This document shows positions 2,707 to 52,569 of a stretch of DNA of 64,000 nt, piece after piece. The notes below the pieces were generated by a model. That model was not told the DNA's origin. It did no database searches and saw only the letters and a list, made by a program, of their open reading frames with translations. Source of the DNA: Patescibacteria group bacterium (GTDB lineage: Bacteria; Patescibacteriota; Patescibacteriia; UBA10025; JAHIVO01); the NCBI GenBank assembly GCA_018816445.1, contig JAHIVO010000061.1, positions 305-64,304 of the forward strand, in the 5' to 3' direction. Positions within the stretch are counted from its first letter, which is position 1. Each line of letters begins with the position of its first letter. The position numbers were made by a program, and so were the translations under genes.

Positions 2707-3909
2707 ATGACACACGAACCCGCAATAAATTTTTATGGACTTGGGATTGCTCCCAAGCTTCTGGAGATACTTAAAAAAAATCGATTTACTAAACCGACGC
2801 CAATTCAGGCAAAAACCATTCCGCTGGCAATTGAGAGCAAGGACCTGATCGGCATAGCGCAAACCGGGACAGGGAAAACACTTGCCTTTGGCATGCCCAT
2901 GATGCAAAACATCGCACGCTTAAAAACGCGAGGGCTTATTTTGGTTCCCACGCGTGAGTTGGCCGCGCAAGTAGATGAGGTACTTGTGAATTTAGGTAAA
3001 TCATTTGGACTTAAAACAGTGCTCATTATCGGCGGCGCGTCCGCCGGCCAGCAGATACGCGCGCTCAAAGCCACGCCGCATATCATCATAGCCACGCCGG
3101 GCAGGCTCATTGACCACCTCTCAAAACAACCCACCTTACTGCAGGGAATCGGCATTGTCGTGCTTGATGAAGCTGATCGGATGCTTGATATGGGATTTGC
3201 ACCGCAGATTGAAAAGATTCTTATCCGTACTCCCAAACAGCGGCAGACAATGCTTTTTTCGGCAACCATGCCGCAGTCTATAGTCGCGATCGCTAACCGG
3301 CATATGCACTTGCCGTTGCGCGTTGAAATTGCGAAATCCGGAACCACAGTCAAGGAAATAGATCAGGAAGTGATTTTTCTTTCAGCCAACGATAAACGCC
3401 CCACCCTAAAGATTCTTCTTGAGCGCTATAGCGGTTCTATTTTGATATTTTCCCGCACGAAATGGGGCGCGAAAAAACTTGCCAATACAATCCGCCATAT
3501 GGGGTATACGGCATCGGAGATTCATTCAAATAGAAGTTTGGCCCAGCGGCGGTCAGCCATTGAAGGATTTAAAAAAGGTGCGCATCGTATTCTGGTCGCT
3601 ACTGATATCGCCGCCCGCGGTCTTGACGTGAATAACATTGAAGTCGTCATTAATTATGATTTGCCGGGCACGCCAGATGATTATGTCCACCGCATCGGGC
3701 GTACTGCGCGAGCTGGTAAAAAAGGTAAAGCAATTTCATTCGCCACCCCTGACCAAAGACGGGACGTTCAGGACATTGAACGGCTGATACGGACGCAGCT
3801 CGTTGTCGGGAAGGAAACCTCGGTGTCTAAATTGCCCCAGCATCAAGCGCATCATCCGCGGAAACGGCATTCTCGTTACCGTTCACGCCAACATCGCAGA
3901 CGACGATAG
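2707..3909 (+). CDS. DEAD-box ATP-dependent RNA helicase
   Basis: Q-motif, AQTGTGKT, DEAD, SAT and HRIGRTARAG motifs are all present. Basic C-terminal tail. Confidence 0.9.
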   Translation: MTHEPAINFYGLGIAPKLLEILKKNRFTKPTPIQAKTIPLAIESKDLIGIAQTGTGKTLAFGMPMMQNIARLKTRGLILVPTRELAAQVDEVLVNLGKSFGLKTVLIIGGASAGQQIRALKATPHIIIATPGRLIDHLSKQPTLLQGIGIVVLDEADRMLDMGFAPQIEKILIRTPKQRQTMLFSATMPQSIVAIANRHMHLPLRVEIAKSGTTVKEIDQEVIFLSANDKRPTLKILLERYSGSILIFSRTKWGAKKLANTIRHMGYTASEIHSNRSLAQRRSAIEGFKKGAHRILVATDIAARGLDVNNIEVVINYDLPGTPDDYVHRIGRTARAGKKGKAISFATPDQRRDVQDIERLIRTQLVVGKETSVSKLPQHQAHHPRKRHSRYRSRQHRRRR

Positions 3910-10414: not shown

Positions 10415-10540
10415 GCTTGACTGATTGTTTAAACTAGTATATACTTTATAAGCTATGAAATATTTATACGCTGAATTGAATAATAATTCAAATAACCGAC
10501 TCCTGCCGGCGTAATTTTGTTTATTTCAATAGCGTTAATT

Positions 10541-10568
10541 GCCGGCACCAAAAGAGCCGGTATTTTTT
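10541..10568 (+). terminator. Rho-independent terminator (CCGGC...GCCGG + T-run)
   Basis: Hairpin followed by TATTTTTTAT. Three self-complementary GCCGGC copies allow alternative pairings. Confidence 0.4.
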
Positions 10569-10672
10569 ATTCCTCCTTCGCCCTTCAGGCCACGGAGGAC
10601 TAGTAGTCTGGGGTAGTTCAATTGGTACCCCGTAAAGGATACGGGGCAGGCAACGCCGCAAGTCTATTAAAT

Positions 10673-10879
10673 TCTAGGGTAGTTTCCGCCAAAGGCGGAT
10701 CCGCCTATGGCGGACAATTGGCCCCGCCACAATGTTCTGGGATAGTTTAATTGGTAAAACCCTGCACTGTTAATGCAGTGATCCTGGTCCGAGTCCAGGT
10801 CCCAGAGTTTTGTGGCGGGGTAAAATAGAACGCTCCGCTGTTAACGGAGAGGTTGGAGGTCCAAGTCCTCCCCCTAGAG
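10673..10879 (+). tRNA. Outer tRNA-Asn (GTT)-like gene interrupted in the D-arm by ~135 nt that contain the complete inner tRNA-Asn
   Basis: Acceptor TCTAGGG (10673-10679) pairs with CCCTAGA (10872-10878). Anticodon stem CTCCG/CGGAG with loop CTGTTAA, T-arm GGAGG-TCCAAGT-CCTCC. D-stem GTTT (10682-85)/GAAC (10828-31). Insert clamped by CCCCGCCACA (10722-31)/TGTGGCGGGG (10811-20). Confidence 0.35.
10736..10807 (+). tRNA. tRNA-Asn (GTT), inner gene of a nested pair
   Basis: Cloverleaf by hand: acceptor TCTGGGA/TCCCAGA, D-stem GTTT/AAAC, anticodon stem CTGCA/TGCAG with loop CTGTTAA, T-arm CCTGG-TCCGAGT-CCAGG. 72 nt, no encoded CCA. T-loop has C at position 55, which is unusual. Confidence 0.65.
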
Positions 10880-11134
10880 TTCAGCGGGTAGATAAGTTAA
10901 CGGTAGTTTAGGTTCGCCCAATCATCCGATTGGGCGCCCCGTCGTATGACGGGGCAAGCCCTCCCCCTAGAGTTCGTCAGGTAGTTAAATTGTATAATAT
11001 TTTGGTTCGCCGTGAACCACTAAAGGGTTCACGGCGCCATGTACCCTTGAGTGGTACATGGCGATCCCAGCCCCCAGAGTTTAGCAGGCTTGTCCCGTAG
11101 GAGCGTCAGCGACTTACGGGATTCGAATCCTGCT

Positions 11135-11446
11135 CCCCGAGCCAATTGCCGAAAGTGACAACTTCTGTGGATAAGTCATAAAAGCCTTTAAATATCGGGT
11201 GAAAGTTGTACCCACTAGTTTTCTGTTTCGCAACTAAAATCTCCCCACCCAAGTAGGATTCGAATTTCTCATTCTTTTTAGCCTAAAATTCTTCCTTGTC
11301 CATCAGCAGTTTGAAGAGGTTTATAAGGTTTTCAGCCATGAGCCAGGCTTCGTCATCCGATATTTCTTCCCCATATTGCTTTTTGTAGATTTCCTTGAAT
11401 TTATCTATGTGATGTTGTTCAAGAGGCATTGATATCACCCCCTCAC
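11135..11446. repeat. Direct repeat copy 1 (~312 bp, ~90% identical to 15443-15756), encodes a 48-aa ORF
   Basis: Hand alignment of the two copies. They bracket the DGR-containing modules. Confidence 0.8.
11283..11429 (-). CDS. Conserved 48-aa protein (MPLEQHHIDKFKEIYKKQYGEEISDDEAWLMAENLINLFKLLMDKEEF)
   Basis: Strong RBS GAGGGGGTGATATCA before the ATG. The two copies differ at 12 nt but only 1 aa, which indicates purifying selection. Below the 60-aa track cutoff. Confidence 0.6.
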   Translation of the reverse strand: MPLEQHHIDKFKEIYKKQYGEEISDDEAWLMAENLINLFKLLMDKEEF

Positions 11447-12639: not shown

Positions 12640-12830
12640 CCATTGTTACTTTCCGCACTTTGTAATCCAAGAGCTAAAATCACGTTACCTCTTCATTTAA
12701 GAGCGGCTCCTTGCTGTAATCTCCGGACAGAGATTTCCAGAGAGCTGTTCTTAAATAACCGAAAGGTATCGCCTGGAAACCACAGTGGTTGACAGGCAGA
12801 TGTTTTTCAAAAACCAAGGAGGATGACGCC

Positions 12831-13448
12831 ATGGCAAAGACCATGACCCCATCTATGACTGATGGCCAGATTGACAAGGTTGTCGAAAACATCACAGCAG
12901 GGTTTCGCAAGAGACTTCGCGATCACAGGGATGAACTATCTTCAGACACAGTTCAAACCGTCCTCGGCCAGAAGGATTTTATTTCTGCCCTGTTCGCCGA
13001 GTTTCGCCAGCGCGTGGAAGCGGTCAGCAACATGATCGTTCGTAAGGTCAAGGTGGATCGCACCAGAACCTCGCAAGAGGCGCTGGACGTGACAGGACGT
13101 AAGCAGTATACCGACGACGATGTTGTGAAGTCCATGCCGAACGGCAAGGGCGATGAAACCGAGGTTATTTTCTTCAAGGTAGGTCGTACAATAAGTGACG
13201 ACGATCTGGAGAAAGAATATGAACTGCGCGGCCTGGTACCGGCTGATCCGTATTCACTCTGTGCCGTAAATGGAAATGATCCGGCGTTTGCCGATGAACA
13301 TCCCAATGGCACCCACTGGAAAGATTCCAACGGAAAATGGTGTTTCGCCTCCTTCGGCCGGTGGATCGACGAGCGCGGGGTGAGCGTCGACCGCGACGGT
13401 CGTGACTGGGCTGACTGCTGTTGGTTTGCCGGTGTCCGCAAGAATTAG
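12831..13448 (+). CDS. DGR target (variable) protein; C-terminal ligand-binding-type domain carries the VR
   Basis: AGGAGG RBS 8 nt before ATG 12831. C-terminus ...FGRWIDERGVSVDRDGRDWADCCWFAGVRKN is encoded by the VR. Confidence 0.75.
   Translation: MAKTMTPSMTDGQIDKVVENITAGFRKRLRDHRDELSSDTVQTVLGQKDFISALFAEFRQRVEAVSNMIVRKVKVDRTRTSQEALDVTGRKQYTDDDVVKSMPNGKGDETEVIFFKVGRTISDDDLEKEYELRGLVPADPYSLCAVNGNDPAFADEHPNGTHWKDSNGKWCFASFGRWIDERGVSVDRDGRDWADCCWFAGVRKN
13340..13441 (+). repeat. DGR variable repeat (VR)
   Basis: 102-nt homolog of TR 13778-13879. The 20 differences are all at TR adenines; every other position is identical. Confidence 0.85.
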
Positions 13449-13498
13449 GCACTTGGTCGCTTGAACGCATGGCACTTGATTGGTGCCCTTGGATACTA

Positions 13499-13528
13499 CA
13501 CTCTGCATGAGCTTGCTCATGCAGAGTG
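13499..13528 (+). terminator. Perfect 13-bp hairpin (CACTCTGCATGAG-CTTG-CTCATGCAGAGTG) + T-run, 58 nt downstream of VR
   Basis: Read directly. Candidate target-gene terminator and/or the DGR VR-flanking hairpin used in homing. Confidence 0.55.
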
Positions 13529-13777
13529 ATTTTTATCTGACAACGTGATATAATTTTATTTGGAGAGTAAGCGATTCAGCTTGCGGGCACGCCTGCAGGC
13601 GGCTGAAATCCGGATCATTGGGAAAGCCGGAATGCCTGTGGTTATGGCGACAGGCAGCGCGCTCCTTGATTCAATACCAACAAAGATACTTGGTGCAATA
13701 TGCTGGCGGAGCTTTTCTCCCGAATAAAATACAGCCCGGAGAGAATTCAACGGGCAGTGGTACGGAAGGCATGTTGC

Positions 13778-13879
13778 ATAATTCGCCAACTTCAACCGGT
13801 GGAACGACGAGCGCAAGGTGAACGTCAACCGCAACGATAATGACTGGAATGACAACTGTTGGTTTGCCGGTGTCCGCAA
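13778..13879 (+). repeat. DGR template repeat (TR), noncoding, rich in AAC/AAT codons in the VR frame
   Basis: In the VR frame TR reads FNRWNDERKVNVNRNDNDWNDNCWFAGVRN. 20 of its 30 adenines are substituted in VR. Confidence 0.85.
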
Positions 13880-13901
13880 CTATCTTTTTTGGAGCAATCC
13901 G

Positions 13902-14309
13902 CTATTTTGGCGGATTGTTTTTCATCAGTTGTTTTCGCCACCCGCCCAGCATTTTTCCAACCTCTACCAATGGAGGCGTGAGTTGGCTATATTTTCTGGT
14001 ATCCAGAACTTTCATTTCCCAGGCGATCTGCAGGAAAAATTTTAGGGCATCAAGCTTGGTTGAAGCACGCTCCACTACAGAGAGCTTCTTTTCCCTGGGT
14101 GAGTATCCGGCCAGAAGAATTAGTTCCAGAGCATCATAAAACAGCAGGTCAATCTTAGACCCGAGCGTAAAGCGGGACAGCCGCGGCAGGTTCGTCAAAT
14201 TCGCGTGCCATAACCTATACCCTGCCGCCAGTTTCTGTATAATGGGAATATCGACCGACAAATCCCTGGGGGGGGTAATCTTATTAATATGAAAACGCTT
14301 TTGACTCAT
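13902..14309 (-). CDS. avd: Avd-like accessory variability determinant (four-helix-bundle protein)
   Basis: LLAGYSPREKK (compare NIAEGYGR), FFLQIAWEMKVL and LVEVGKMLGGWRKQL resemble Avd / 23S-rRNA-IVS proteins. On the strand opposite to TR and RT, overlapping the RT start by 21 nt. Confidence 0.6.
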   Translation of the reverse strand: MSQKRFHINKITPPRDLSVDIPIIQKLAAGYRLWHANLTNLPRLSRFTLGSKIDLLFYDALELILLAGYSPREKKLSVVERASTKLDALKFFLQIAWEMKVLDTRKYSQLTPPLVEVGKMLGGWRKQLMKNNPPK

Positions 14310-15284
14310 GGGTTTAAGGATATTGTATCGATAGACAATCTATTGTCAGCCTGGCGTGAGTTTGTCCCGGGCAAAGCCGGGAAAAAGGATGTCAGGGAAT
14401 TTTACCGCCATCTGGCTGATAATATTATATCACTCCACGAGGAGCTTGAAAACGACACTTACCGACATGGCGGGTATATTCACTTCAGGATCTCCGATCC
14501 CAAGCCTAGGGATATTCACAAGGCAACCATCCGGGACAGGCTGGTGCACCATGCCATCTATCGCGTACTCTACCCCTTTTTAAGTGATACATTCATCGCC
14601 GATTCATATTCCTGCCAGTTGGGAAAGGGAACGCATCGGGCTATCAGAAGATTCCGGACTTTCGCCGGTCAGGTAAGCAGAAACAATACCCAAACCTGCT
14701 GGATATTAAAATGCGATATCAGGAAATTCTTTGCCAGCATTGACCATGCTATATTGATGAATATGCTAAGTGAGTATATTACTGACCAAAGAATTAATAC
14801 TTTATTGCGCGAGGTTATCCAGAGTTTCTGCTGGCAACCGGGCAAAGGTTTGCCGCTTGGCAATCTGACATCCCAGTTGTTCGTTAATGTGTATATGAAT
14901 GAGTTTGACCAATTCATGAAACATACATTAAAAGTCAAGTATTATCTGCGTTATGCTGATGATTTTGTTGTAATGTCTGATAACAGATCGTGGTTAAAAG
15001 GACTCATACCGATTATCAGTAATTTTCTGACGGTCAAACTCAAACTCACGCTTCATCCGAGCAAGGTATTTATTAAAACACTGGCTTCAGGAGTTGATTT
15101 TCTGGGCTGGGTGCATTTTCCGTATCATCAGGTACTCCGCACTTCCTCCAAAAGGCGCATGTTAAACAGGATTACTGAAAACCCGGAAACATCTACTATG
15201 CAGTCATATTTGGGTCTACTACAACATGGCAATGCATACAAGCTGGCAGAGCAGGTGATTAATCAGACCTATCTATGGAAGTAA
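14289..15284 (+). CDS. DGR reverse transcriptase
   Basis: RT motifs 1-7, YADDFVV (YxDD). The DGR-specific LGNLTSQLFVNVY ([I/L]GxxxSQ) replaces the retroviral QGxxxSP. N-terminal NLLSAWREF...VHHAIYRVL is typical of DGR RTs. Confidence 0.85.
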   Translation: MKTLLTHGFKDIVSIDNLLSAWREFVPGKAGKKDVREFYRHLADNIISLHEELENDTYRHGGYIHFRISDPKPRDIHKATIRDRLVHHAIYRVLYPFLSDTFIADSYSCQLGKGTHRAIRRFRTFAGQVSRNNTQTCWILKCDIRKFFASIDHAILMNMLSEYITDQRINTLLREVIQSFCWQPGKGLPLGNLTSQLFVNVYMNEFDQFMKHTLKVKYYLRYADDFVVMSDNRSWLKGLIPIISNFLTVKLKLTLHPSKVFIKTLASGVDFLGWVHFPYHQVLRTSSKRRMLNRITENPETSTMQSYLGLLQHGNAYKLAEQVINQTYLWK

Positions 15285-15409: not shown

Positions 15410-15451
15410 CTTCTCGCAAAAAAGTTCTAACGTCCTCTACGACCCCGAGCC
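15410..15451. repeat. Module-boundary motif copy M2
   Basis: CTTCTCGCAAAAAGTTCTAACGTCCTCTACGACCCCGAGCCA, immediately followed by direct-repeat copy 2. Confidence 0.6.
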
Positions 15452-15756
15452 AATTGCCTAGAACGACAACTTACTGTGGATAAGTCATATTAACCTTTAA
15501 ATATCGGGTGAAAGTTGTACCCAAGAGTTTTCTATTTACGCAATTAAAATCTCCCCACCCAGGTAGGATTCGAATTTCTCTATCTTTTTAGTCTAAAATT
15601 CTTCCTTATCCATCAGCAGTTTGAAAAGATTTATCAAGTTATTGGCCATGAGCCAGGCTTCGTCGTCCGATATTTCTTCTCCATATTGTTTTTTGTAGAT
15701 TTCCTTAAATTTATCTATGTGATGTTGTTCAAGAGGCATTGGTTATCACCCCCTTT
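15443..15756. repeat. Direct repeat copy 2 (~312 bp)
   Basis: Aligned to 11135-11446 by hand. Confidence 0.8.
15593..15739 (-). CDS. Conserved 48-aa protein, copy 2 (differs at one residue, E33N)
   Basis: Same RBS and frame as copy 1. 10 of the 12 nucleotide differences are synonymous. Confidence 0.6.
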   Translation of the reverse strand: MPLEQHHIDKFKEIYKKQYGEEISDDEAWLMANNLINLFKLLMDKEEF

Positions 15757-18050: not shown

Positions 18051-18242
18051 TGAAACGAAAAACTAAAAAAATTAATAAAGCGGATCCGCCTTTGGTGAAG
18101 ATTTTGGCCCACGGAGTTCGGGGTTTATTATGTTGTTTTGATTTAAGGTGAGAGTCTCAGAGCACCGCGGCCGCGGGGTGAAAATCCCGCCATATGGCGG
18201 GGCGACTCGCGAAGTTAGGATCTGATGTGATATAATTAAATT

Positions 18243-27781: not shown

Positions 27782-28030
27782 TTAATATTACGCTGAAGTA
27801 AGCCAAATGAGTCTCAGCCAGAGGCTGATCCGCCTTTGGCGGAAATAATGAGACACCCCTATGTACTGTCTTACTTGTTCCGTTACGAGCGCGAGTTTAC
27901 GGGATTTGTCTCATTTCCTGCCCCGTTGAATGACGGGGTCGCTTCTTGAAAGACTCCCTAAAAGTTTTTGAAAAAAGCAAGCCTAATCTCGGCTCTTATT
28001 AAAAGGGATTAGCTGCTCTGTAAACAACTA

Positions 28031-51523: not shown

Positions 51524-51529
51524 GCGTCA

Positions 51530-51589
51530 GAATCGTACTTCGCCTTCCGTTTCCAGTAATGGCTGAAAACTACAGGCTTCGTACGATTC
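51530..51589 (-). promoter_or_regulatory. Conserved ~60-nt structured leader upstream of tRNA-CAT (copy 1)
   Basis: About 85% identical to 52135-52194. Terminal 9-bp inverted repeat GAATCGTAC...GTACGATTC. Confidence 0.4.
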
Positions 51590-51684
51590 TTCTTTGCCTC
51601 GCTCAAACTACTATTTGAGCTCGGTTTTTATTTTAATAGTTGACTTACCAGCCAAAACTTCCAAGGGAAACGAAGGTTGGTTAT

Positions 51685-51927
51685 TTAAATTAATCTTTTA
51701 TTCATAAAAGCTATACCAGATCCTGACTTTAAATACCTTTCAAAGGTTAATGCTTTCTGTTTGGTAGTAAAAACGCAATAAAAGATTAATTTCCAAGGTT
51801 TATATTTTGCAGAATAAGTAGTACTTTTTGAGTTATGTTTTTTAAGGCGCTGCTGTAGATTAGTGGTATATCCTTTATATATCATTTTTGGATATTTTAT
51901 ACTCCTTAATATATAAACTATATGCAT
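51685..51927 (-). CDS. GIY-YIG nuclease family protein
   Basis: MHIVYILRS...IYKGYTTNLQQRLKKHN. Confidence 0.55.
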   Translation of the reverse strand: MHIVYILRSIKYPKMIYKGYTTNLQQRLKKHNSKSTTYSAKYKPWKLIFYCVFTTKQKALTFERYLKSGSGIAFMNKRLI

Positions 51928-52127: not shown

Positions 52128-52134
52128 GCGTTAG

Positions 52135-52194
52135 GAATCGCACTCCGCCTTCCGTTTCCAGTAGTGGCTGAAAACTGCAGGCTGCGTGCGTTTC
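52135..52194 (-). promoter_or_regulatory. Conserved ~60-nt structured leader upstream of tRNA-CAT (copy 2)
   Basis: GAATCGCACTCCGCCTTCCGTTTCCAGTAGTGGCTGAAAACTGCAGGCTGCGTGCGTTTC. Confidence 0.4.
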
Positions 52195-52387
52195 CTCCTT
52201 TCCTCGCAAATATCTCTTAACTTTTAGCTTGGATTTTTTTATTTAGTTAAAATCAAAGTATCTCTAGTATTATAAGTTATTAAAGATAAAATAGCAAGGT
52301 TTAGGTATTTATTGGTGCCGGGAGAGACCCCGTATAATTTCTCACTACGTTCAAAATATACGGGGCAGGGAGTCTCACTAATTCACA

Positions 52388-52569
52388 TGCCGAAGGTGGG
52401 AGTCGAACCCACACGAGGTTGCCCTCATGCGATTTTGAGTCGCACGCGCCCGCCTGCCTCTGCCGAGAGGGAGAGTCGAACTCCCATGAGGTTGCCCCCG
52501 CAGGATTTTGAGTCCTGTGCGTCTACCAGTTCCGCCATCTCGGCAAAGGCAGGCGGGCGCCACTTCGGC
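52388..52569 (-). tRNA. Outer tRNA-Leu (CAA)-like gene with the D-arm replaced by a 13-bp clamp helix that carries the inner tRNA-Leu
   Basis: Acceptor GCCGAAG (rc 52563-69)/CTTCGGC (rc 52389-95). Clamp GCGCCCGCCTGCC/GGCAGGCGGGCGC. Anticodon stem TGCGA/TCGCA with loop CTCAAAA, T-arm GTGGG-TTCGACT-CCCAC. Confidence 0.4.
52461..52544 (-). tRNA. tRNA-Leu (CAA), inner gene of a nested pair
   Basis: Acceptor GCCGAGA/TCTCGGC, D-arm GCGGAACTGGTAGACGC, anticodon stem CAGGA/TCCTG with loop CTCAAAA, 15-nt variable arm, T-arm GGGAG-TTCGACT-CTCCC. 84 nt. Confidence 0.75.

Follow-up and report, generated by a model that had tools for sequence, protein, structure and literature searches.

A tRNA-Asn gene nested within the D-loop-coding part of an interrupted tRNA-Asn copy in a Patescibacteria group bacterium

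Interrupted tRNA genes, whether carrying introns, split or permuted, are central to ideas on tRNA evolution, and to our knowledge those of bacteria have so far comprised only self-splicing introns in the anticodon loop. The locus described here lies in a 64,000-nt stretch of DNA from a Patescibacteria group bacterium (the window; contig JAHIVO010000061.1 of assembly GCA_018816445.1), where at positions 10673-10879 a complete tRNA-Asn gene sits inside the D-loop-coding part of a second tRNA-Asn copy with the same anticodon, enclosed by a leader/trailer helix referred to as the clamp. From its sequence the arrangement is read, with a probability of roughly 55%, as a 'matryoshka' tRNA locus, in which the inner gene would be the working gene and the outer one an interrupted, co-transcribed copy of the same isoacceptor. 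Among the closest described systems, the intervening sequences of bacterial 23S rRNA are removed by RNase III without re-ligation, and rRNA leaders and trailers form processing stems; RNase P and RNase Z, which would make the cuts here, produce ends that are not substrates of archaeal tRNA ligation. Split and tri-split tRNAs as well as non-canonical tRNA introns are known from Nanoarchaeum, Caldivirga and Thermoproteales (cited in PMC10714607 and PMC3978253). In Patescibacteria, tRNA-Asn can carry a group I intron at position 35/36 of the anticodon loop (PMC13011429), and partial tRNA genes can be left behind by integrating mobile elements as duplications (attL/attR) of attachment (att) sites (PMC9897764; Williams 2002 as cited there). 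A search of the literature on nested, embedded or split bacterial tRNAs, whose reach left most subscription-journal papers outside, returned no description of the present layout.

The inner gene (10736-10807, forward strand, as are all parts of the nest) is called as tRNA-Asn(gtt) by ARAGORN (10735-10808) and scores 64.7 bits against the Rfam model RF00005, whose gathering threshold is 29, in agreement with the canonical fold assigned to it by a sequence-only reading of the region. It has a G discriminator and no encoded CCA, and its T-loop (10789-10795) reads TCCGAGT, with a C at position 55 in place of the conserved T54-U55-C56. The same C55 is found in the outer T-loop (10860-10866, TCCAAGT), with TTCGAG present in the plain genes of four relatives, and it may be a shared derived oddity or a result of gene conversion. 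The leader and trailer of the inner tRNA, CCCCGCCACA (10722-10731; inverted repeat I2) and TGTGGCGGGG (10811-10820), constitute the two arms of the clamp and pair perfectly over 10 bp, or over 12 bp when a G-U end pair is counted. Around them, piece B (10673-10685) supplies the outer 5' acceptor strand TCTAGGG, followed by TA and the D-stem strand GTTT; TCTAGGG (10673-10679) pairs 7/7 with CCCTAGA (10872-10878) and GTTT (10682-10685) pairs with GAAC (10828-10831). Next come the two small hairpins TCCGCCAAAGGCGGA and TCCGCCTATGGCGGA (10685-10714; inverted repeat I5), which represent a repeat element and not a part of the tRNA, and a D-loop remnant CAATTGG (10715-10721) in which G18 and G19 are kept. 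The outer 3' part, piece D (10821-10879), consists of TAAAATA, GAAC, G, the anticodon arm CTCCG-CTGTTAA-CGGAG with the GTT anticodon (10833-10849), the T arm GGAGG-TCCAAGT-CCTCC (10855-10871), CCCTAGA and a discriminator G, such that the outer copy is divided between 10673-10721 and 10821-10879. Every element listed by the sequence-only reading is thereby accounted for, and the sole adjustment within the nest concerns the insert in the outer D-loop, which measures 142 nt between the D-stem strands and not ~135 nt.

Being discontinuous, the outer gene presents no contiguous cloverleaf and is called in place neither by ARAGORN nor by Rfam at the gathering threshold, its 3' part reaching 28.9 bits at permissive settings against the gathering score of 29. 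When the insert is removed in silico, both B+TA+D and the combination of D with a second 5' piece further upstream (piece A) are called as tRNA-Asn(gtt), with four paired stems and the correct anticodon and discriminator; a spliced version retaining an extra AAATA in the D-loop is not called. The minimum free energy (MFE) fold of 10673-10879 is a double cloverleaf (-103.3 kcal/mol, z = -8.5 relative to shuffled sequences). Inner and outer copies are ~75% identical (direct repeat D2) and differ by seven double compensatory substitutions with no broken pair. Rfam searches of the region and of the whole window, at gathering and at permissive thresholds, gave tRNA matches only and no believable score for transfer-messenger RNA, intron, ribozyme, GOLLD/ROOL or CRISPR families.

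The nest shares with archaeal split and intron-bearing tRNAs a tRNA gene interrupted outside or inside the anticodon loop, the D-loop included, and complementary flanks that juxtapose the tRNA parts, GC-rich in archaea and represented here by the clamp (10722-10731/10811-10820); the interrupting sequences of the archaeal systems also appear mobile between tRNA genes, a further likeness. Unlike them, it is found in a bacterium with both parts on one predicted transcript, its junction is an uninterrupted helix of 10-12 bp without the 3-nt bulges of a bulge-helix-bulge motif, and its insert is a complete tRNA of the same identity, with the outer copy often decayed. Of the 64 open reading frames (ORFs) in the window that reach 90 aa, 40 were scanned with Pfam, and no splicing endonuclease or ligase gene was found among them. 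Like att-site debris, the locus has fragments of a tRNA beside a complete gene for the same tRNA and lies next to an island whose flanking direct repeats begin at the 3' end of a tRNA. Unlike such debris, the fragments of the nest stand on both sides of the live gene, are complementary to each other and are set apart from it by no more than a short inverted repeat, with breakpoints in the D-loop and without an integrase or a kilobase-scale element. An att fragment would be a direct-repeat copy accompanied by an integrase element, and what is seen is ~75% identity, a spacing of at most 14 nt and no integrase among the scanned ORFs; a tRNA-like fragment further downstream (fragment G) and the repeats beginning at 11138 and 15446 match the att-site family better than the nest does. 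With the group I intron tRNAs the locus has in common the phylum, the tRNA identity and the context of a phylum whose tRNA genes are unusually often interrupted, and one syntenic relative (L167) appears to carry such an intron beside the orthologous locus. In contrast to those genes, the insert lies in the D-loop and is made of a tRNA and a helix, and it matches no Rfam intron family even at E values up to 10. The resemblance to 23S rRNA intervening sequences resides in a helix-closed insert within a loop of a structured RNA, whose removal would leave an RNA that is fragmented yet still assembled; here, the host is a tRNA and the cargo a tRNA predicted to be functional.

That an assembler had joined two tandem tRNA-Asn genes into a chimera, the circumstance named by the sequence-only reading as one that would overturn it, is extremely improbable. 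Apart from the window being part of a metagenome-assembled genome, nothing was found to speak for it, and the layout is present in ENA, NCBI and Logan assemblies: over the nested region an 82-kb ENA contig and a Logan contig show 100% identity, and a single base out of 901 differs in the NCBI genome contig (GCA_018813575.1). Moreover, tRNA-Leu shows the same layout in this window and in dozens of unrelated assemblies.

This second nest of the window is a tRNA-Leu(CAA) within a tRNA-Leu(CAA) (52388-52569, reverse strand), recognized with ARAGORN, Rfam and folding. Its complete inner tRNA-Leu(CAA) occupies 52461-52544 and its 10-bp clamp is formed by 52548-52557 with 52449-52458. The outer copy reads GCCGAAG-TG-GCG, then the insert CCCGCCTGCC-TTT-inner-GA-GGCAGGCGGG, then CGC-G-TGCGA-CTCAAAA and onward, the clamp replacing the whole D-loop. 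The MFE fold is again a double cloverleaf (z = -8.8), in which the D-stem, continued by the clamp, the clamp itself and the inner acceptor stem make up a continuous duplex of ~23 bp, and ARAGORN calls an overlapping tRNA-Leu of 76 nt from the outer 3' part. To find further cases, 185,579 species genomes and the JGI metagenomes were scanned with a DNA pattern requiring nothing but a T-loop followed by a too-close Leu(CAA) anticodon loop and another T-loop, which yielded 70 and 74 loci, respectively. Using scripts, nests were recognized among these where an upstream sequence could pair with the downstream acceptor strand and where a leader/trailer helix enclosed a tRNA called by ARAGORN. This gave some 20 additional clamped or nested tRNAs, of Leu, Val, Ser and Asn identity, from uncultivated bacteria that are mostly Patescibacteria, with named hosts including Patescibacteria, Gottesmanbacteria, Doudnabacteria, Saccharibacteria, Parcubacteria and WOR-1. 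Nests are present among the genome loci in L019, L021, L061, L069, L075 and L082 and among the metagenome loci in L092, L105, L106, L123, L126, L129 and L143; in L067 an outer 3' part stands behind a complete tRNA-Leu, with no 5' piece found, and other identities are represented by tRNA-Val (L068), tRNA-Ser (L028) and tRNA-Asn (L111, L132 and L151).

Although the scan pattern left the identity of the inner tRNA free, it always equals that of the shell. Clamp sequences vary between nests, the arms being complementary within each pair. Of the 200 tRNAs that the fetched loci contain, 6 have a leader/trailer Watson-Crick helix of at least 10 bp, where shuffled flanks lead one to expect 0.02, and because of this excess chance is excluded as the source of the clamps. 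Two loci comprise three levels. In L068 (3827-4230), tRNA-Val shells with TAC and CAC anticodons surround a tRNA-Val(CAC) through inserts in the anticodon loop, and in L123 (reverse strand, ~3380-3710) the middle shell has lost its anticodon arm to a clamp and the innermost tRNA-Leu and the outermost shell have the same sequence over 15 + 62 nt. A viral origin was considered and rejected, as in viral contigs the Leu pattern corresponds to tight tandem tRNAs and one att-type fragment, with zero nests.

The history of the Asn locus can be followed in three syntenic relatives (L160, L163 and L167), reached through homologues of the adjacent SpoU gene, whose proteins are 66%, 69% and 60% identical, respectively, to that of the window. 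The order of the locus is conserved in all three, with a promoter, a leader ORF rich in Asn codons, a terminator hairpin and then a plain tRNA-Asn. L167 has no shell around its tRNA-Asn. There, 10-bp direct repeats GCCCATTAAA flank a plain tRNA-Asn (1691-1820), and a second tRNA-Asn (1845-2102) carries, after CTGT at position 35/36, an apparent group I intron of the kind reported for Patescibacteria. L160 and L163 hold the plain gene inside a leader/trailer helix of 7-10 bp (CTCAAAA with TTTTGAG) without a 5' shell; their trailers, TTTTGGAGGG in L160 and TTTTGAGTGT in L163, each pair with their own leader and are homologous to TGTGGCGGGG. Behind the plain gene these two loci have a 3' shell, 'unit 2', with a hairpin in the anticodon loop and a double hairpin in the T-loop. 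Positions 10736-10995 of the window align collinearly with the L160 plain gene and unit 2 over 261 columns (E = 4e-22), which makes the inner gene the positional orthologue of the plain gene of L160 and L163 and the clamp ancestral and covarying (cAc/gTg as opposed to cTc/gAg). In addition, GAACGCTCCGCTGTTAACGGAGAGGT within piece D is identical at 26/26 positions to the L160 plain gene. The proposal that the outer copy is ancestral and the inner one a newcomer is weakened, given that the inner gene is orthologous to the plain gene and that L160 and L163 already possess both a clamp and a 3' shell.

Small palindromic elements accompany these loci. The double hairpin in the outer D-loop recurs at 27814-27845 (90.6% identity) and partly at 18080-18095. 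It resembles repetitive extragenic palindromic (REP) elements and has the form TCCGCCAAAGGCGGA-TC.GCC...GGC.GA, and one of its copies outside the tRNA lies downstream of a ZIP transporter gene. Small CCCCG-loop-CGGGG hairpins with CA(A/G)G on one side occur at 10628-10650, 10937-10958, 27921-27938 (reverse strand) and 52328-52369, and the same family is found in L019, L068, L092, L105, L106, L143, L160 and L163. Across Patescibacteria these CCCCG...CGGGG elements favour the D, anticodon and T loops of tRNA copies, with some outside tRNA loci. As they are present in both orientations relative to the tRNA, they are DNA-level inserts and not parts of an RNA design.

Whether the outer copy is maintained is the question on which the interpretation turns. 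The sequence-only reading had taken covariation as an argument that both copies are maintained as structured RNAs. Both are indeed perfectly paired, and in an alignment of eight sequences (the inner gene, two spliced outers, four plain genes from relatives and an inner gene of another nest) each of the 167 cells holds a standard pair, with double changes at 13 of 21 pairs; maintenance of the outer copy after nesting does not follow from this. The outer stem variants exist in uninterrupted tRNA-Asn genes of the syntenic relatives, the CTCCG/CGGAG anticodon stem being that of the L160 plain gene and the GGAGG/CCTCC T stem that of L163, and hence the differences between inner and outer copies can be inherited from earlier alleles. 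Nor is the clamp mainly a device for holding the outer halves: L160 and L163 keep a covarying helix without an outer 5' piece and L126 keeps its clamp with the 5' piece deleted, and since the clamp survives without the shell, its role is tied to the inner gene. In ~40% of loci the outer 5' piece has decayed or is gone, the 5' acceptor strand being absent or non-complementary in L019 and L067, pairing 5/7 in L105, deleted in L126 and missing or mismatched in L111, and the D-stem of the shell being lost in L075 and L143. Across 13 Leu nests, mismatches in the anticodon and T stems affect 6/130 pairs of the outer 3' shells versus 1/130 of the inner genes. Some shells are unable to decode, such as the middle shell of L123, with a clamp for an anticodon arm, the L068 shells, with the insert in the anticodon loop, and unit 2 of L160 and L163, a chimera in which a hairpin links two halves of anticodon stems. 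Similarity between inner and outer copies is 0.777 within a locus versus 0.713 between loci (permutation p < 1e-4) and inner genes form no clade apart from outer genes, which fits repeated self-copying, gene conversion or concerted evolution; by gene conversion or self-copying, tidy 3' shells are possible without selection, with short 5' pieces decaying. A single ancient nest with separate inner and outer lineages was rejected, as comparisons across loci give the same identity, 0.713, for inner-inner, outer-outer and inner-outer pairs. Altogether, the outer shells look dispensable. Several observations weigh against an outer copy of this kind around a working inner gene. The outer copy is intact at 21/21 base pairs and has the GTT anticodon and the G73 discriminator, and its A4-U69 pair (pieces B and D) is unique among the eight sequences compared, so that both halves could have changed together after separation, a weak piece of evidence for continued constraint. 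The Leu shells of the window, L061, L092, L106 and L129 are likewise flawless, and many shells keep G18-G19 of the D-loop with the insert at its structurally tolerant end; flawless shells and retained G18-G19 are what selection on a working L-shape would produce. The inner tRNA itself has a C at position 55, where U is near-universal. No recombinase, transposase or integrase family that could have moved the copies was matched among the scanned ORFs, the neighbouring genes with Pfam matches being housekeeping ones such as ParA/ParB, topoisomerase I, DprA, Suf and FeoB, and the window covers only 64 kb of the genome, such that another tRNA-Asn gene may exist elsewhere.

The intact pairs, anticodon, G73 and G18-G19 and the compensatory A4-U69 pair of the outer copy are also what supports a functional bacterial split tRNA, as proposed by the sequence-only reading. 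Taken to its end, such a split tRNA would mean that the inner tRNA is excised as an intervening sequence through cuts by RNase P and RNase Z and that the outer halves, held by the acceptor stem, the D-stem and the clamp, are charged and used in translation, either in two pieces or re-ligated. Insertion of most nests at the variable end of the D-loop and seven intact Leu shells whose stem sequences differ between loci point in the same direction. Against this stand the defective or partly deleted shells of ~40% of loci, some of which cannot decode, a clamp that is retained where the outer 5' piece is gone, outer stem variants found in plain genes, a 29-nt genomic repeat between the D-stem and A14 of the outer copy, and the similarity of inner and outer copies within loci, which makes gene conversion a source of shell integrity. 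A working split tRNA is hence left unsupported and is considered doubtful, a minority possibility that keeps some real weight. A similar standing, tentative at best, is given to the more general idea that the nest is a maintained architecture with the inner tRNA as an 'intron' cut out by RNase P and RNase Z and the outer copy as a two-piece tRNA, or in a variant with a homing tRNA cassette. The small hairpins bring to mind a selfish element, namely a palindrome (CCCCGC...GCGGGG) of the type of REP doublet-forming hairpins (REPINs) or miniature inverted-repeat transposable elements (MITEs), carrying a tRNA and inserting at single-stranded targets in the loop-coding sites of tRNAs, where insertions of the same identity alone would survive with the cargo replacing the destroyed function. 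The clamp ends G-CCCCGC...GCGGGG-T match an empty hairpin element of the L160 shell, empty hairpins of this type, in either orientation, occupy D, anticodon and T loops and are also met away from tRNA loci, the inserts are all at loop positions, and the extra plain tRNA-Asn of L167 lies between the 10-bp direct repeats (GCCCATTAAA). Such a cassette is nevertheless unlikely, as clamp sequences vary widely between nests, inner tRNAs have diverged across loci as much as shells and do not represent a recently spread cassette, no transposase was found among the 40 scanned ORFs and neither the Asn nor the Leu nest of the window shows a visible target-site duplication. Finally, nesting and clamp could be incidental to att-site duplications left in tRNA-Asn by phages or islands that were later deleted. 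tRNA fragments of integration origin are frequent in prokaryotes (PMC9897764), fragment G ends where a ~300-bp repeat flanking a diversity-generating retroelement (DGR) island starts, units E and F behind the nest are tandem 3'-biased copies, and the viral contig L005 has the mundane form of a tRNA with a 3' fragment. This origin would leave unexplained the 5' fragments positioned to pair with 3' fragments, the gap of at most 14 nt between inner gene and shell, the inserts in D-loops and the perfect inverted repeats of 10-15 bp at more than 15 independent nests versus 0.02 expected; with no integrase among the scanned ORFs and with outer and inner copies ~75% identical and not direct-repeat copies, it is quite improbable.

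The sequence-only reading covered 10673-10879; the whole locus extends over ~10607-11144, with piece A upstream and units E, F and G downstream, and is preceded by a putative regulatory block (all on the forward strand). A sigma-70-like promoter, TTGACT-17-TATACT (10417-10445; 10/12 matches), whose site is kept in L160, L163 and L167, would drive the whole locus. It is followed by an almost leaderless ORF of 19 codons, MKYLYAELNNNSNNRLLPA with its stop codon (10455-10514), which has five Asn codons within a run of six, encoding NNNSNN in the window and NNNNNN in the orthologues of L160, L163 and L167, and by a terminator hairpin with a T-run (10540-10568), predicted by folding, the sequence of which covaries in the three relatives. 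The sequence GCCGGC, overlapping the end of the ORF, is able to pair with the 5' arm of the terminator. Thus 10455-10568 combines a run of Asn codons with an alternative pairing to the terminator, as is characteristic of leader-peptide attenuators, in four lineages, the entire block from promoter to terminator being located at 10417-10568 in the window, 2560-2711 in L160, 1994-2127 in L163 and 1540-1690 in L167. The leader ORF is presumed to be the ribosome-stalling sensor of a transcription attenuator, and the block upstream of the tRNA-Asn looks like a classical leader-peptide attenuator controlling a tRNA gene, an arrangement for which a search of the literature returned no example. If functional, it would be a rare case of a tRNA gene sensing the charging level of its own product. 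A corresponding leader peptide with Leu codons in front of the Leu nest was dropped, as two UUG codons were all that it offered.

Piece A, TCTGGGGTAGTTCAATTGGTA (10607-10627), comprises the 5' acceptor strand, the 5' strand of the D-stem and the D-loop of a tRNA-Asn, as judged from the match to L160 and from ARAGORN; it is identical at 20/21 positions to the start of the L160 plain tRNA-Asn, sits where the plain gene of the relatives begins and represents a second 5' piece fitting the same 3' part D. After its D-loop comes a palindromic hairpin CCCCG-loop-CGGGG with CAGG (10628-10650), assigned by matches to the element family. Behind the nest, unit E (10880-10972; direct repeats D1 and D8) is a decayed tRNA-Asn-like copy with two T-loop hairpins after TTCG and the ending CCTCC-CCCTAGA-G, and is orthologous to the T-loop portion of L160 unit 2, both hairpins showing compensatory changes. 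Unit F (10973-11079; repeats D1, D4, I10 and I11, and alignment), a tandem paralogue of E, has a degenerate 5' acceptor strand, a D-arm, no anticodon arm and two 11-bp T-loop hairpins after TTCG, and its 3' acceptor strand CCCCAGA is complementary to the acceptor strand of piece A. Fragment G (11080-11144), recognized from sequence and repeats, derives from another tRNA-like gene, of which it retains the T arm, the 3' acceptor strand and the CCA; a hairpin element interrupts the T arm ahead of TTCGAAT. A 5' partner, TCGGGGA, was searched for nearby and none was found.

Returning to a working inner gene within an interrupted copy, the inner tRNA-Asn with its leader/trailer helix of 10-12 bp would be embedded in the D-loop-coding part of an older isoacceptor copy (A, B and D), with the decayed tRNA-Asn copies E, F and G in tandem behind it. 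A single transcript would start from the promoter at 10417-10445, be gated by the Asn-codon attenuator and continue across A, B, the inner gene, D and beyond. Closure of the insert by the clamp would allow the inner cloverleaf to fold as its own domain, from which RNase P and RNase Z may free the inner tRNA, perhaps after an RNase III cut in the long helix; as no CCA is encoded, it would be added after processing. The outer halves would be by-products, which can possibly anneal to a tRNA-shaped two-piece RNA and would be unneeded for decoding. With less certainty, the arrangement may have originated as isoacceptor copies were repeatedly inserted at the DNA level, or partially duplicated, at loop-coding positions, the same sites that are also colonised by the small palindromic hairpin elements, and gene conversion between inner and outer copies would keep the longer 3' shells tidy with the short 5' shells decaying.

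Other features of the window lie close to the two nests. Direct repeats of ~300 bp (11138-11430 and 15446-15740; 90% identical), each carrying a 48-aa ORF on the reverse strand, flank the DGR island, and the first of them starts exactly at the 3' end, CCCCGAGCCA, of fragment G, in the manner of an integration site; no integrase lies between the two repeats. The complete DGR (12789-15284) includes a target gene (12789-13448) with a variable repeat at its 3' end, a template/variable repeat pair (about 13720-13860 and 13380-13448) in which all mismatches are at template adenines, bAvd (13902-14309, reverse strand) and a reverse transcriptase (14289-15284). A link between the DGR and the nest was rejected, as the repeat at 11138 and 15446 is a plain 90% duplication including the 48-aa ORF and not a template/variable pair, and the differences between inner and outer copies are not adenine-specific. 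On the reverse strand near the Leu nest, a structured element of ~75 nt with nested hairpins and compensatory changes occurs twice (51524-51600 and 52128-52204; 87% mean column identity), directly upstream of both the elongator-type and the initiator-type tRNA-Met, and has no Rfam match. Between the two tRNA-Met genes is an 80-aa ORF for a stand-alone GIY-YIG nuclease domain (51685-51927, reverse strand), flanked by CCAACC...GGTTGG-type hairpins.

With respect to tRNA biology, these loci add a further kind of disrupted tRNA gene, in which a live gene lies in a loop of its own copy, with up to three shells, and which is recurrent in Patescibacteria. As gene finders give overlapping or spurious second genes at nests, tRNA gene counts in tiny genomes can be wrong. 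The locus amounts to a natural experiment on how far the tRNA fold tolerates insertions, can show how a tRNA gene is replaced without loss of function and permits a test of RNase P and RNase Z as a 'splicing' system. Should the outer copy act as a two-piece tRNA, it would give bacteria their first split tRNA and be the first instance of a tRNA maturing from within another, and should the variant with a homing cassette be true, the clamp with its tRNA would constitute a new type of mobile gene cassette that homes into the loops of its own isoacceptor. Even under the conservative reading, in which the inner gene alone works, the arrangement is relevant to tRNA biology and to the annotation of Patescibacteria, and it would be more so if the outer halves work.

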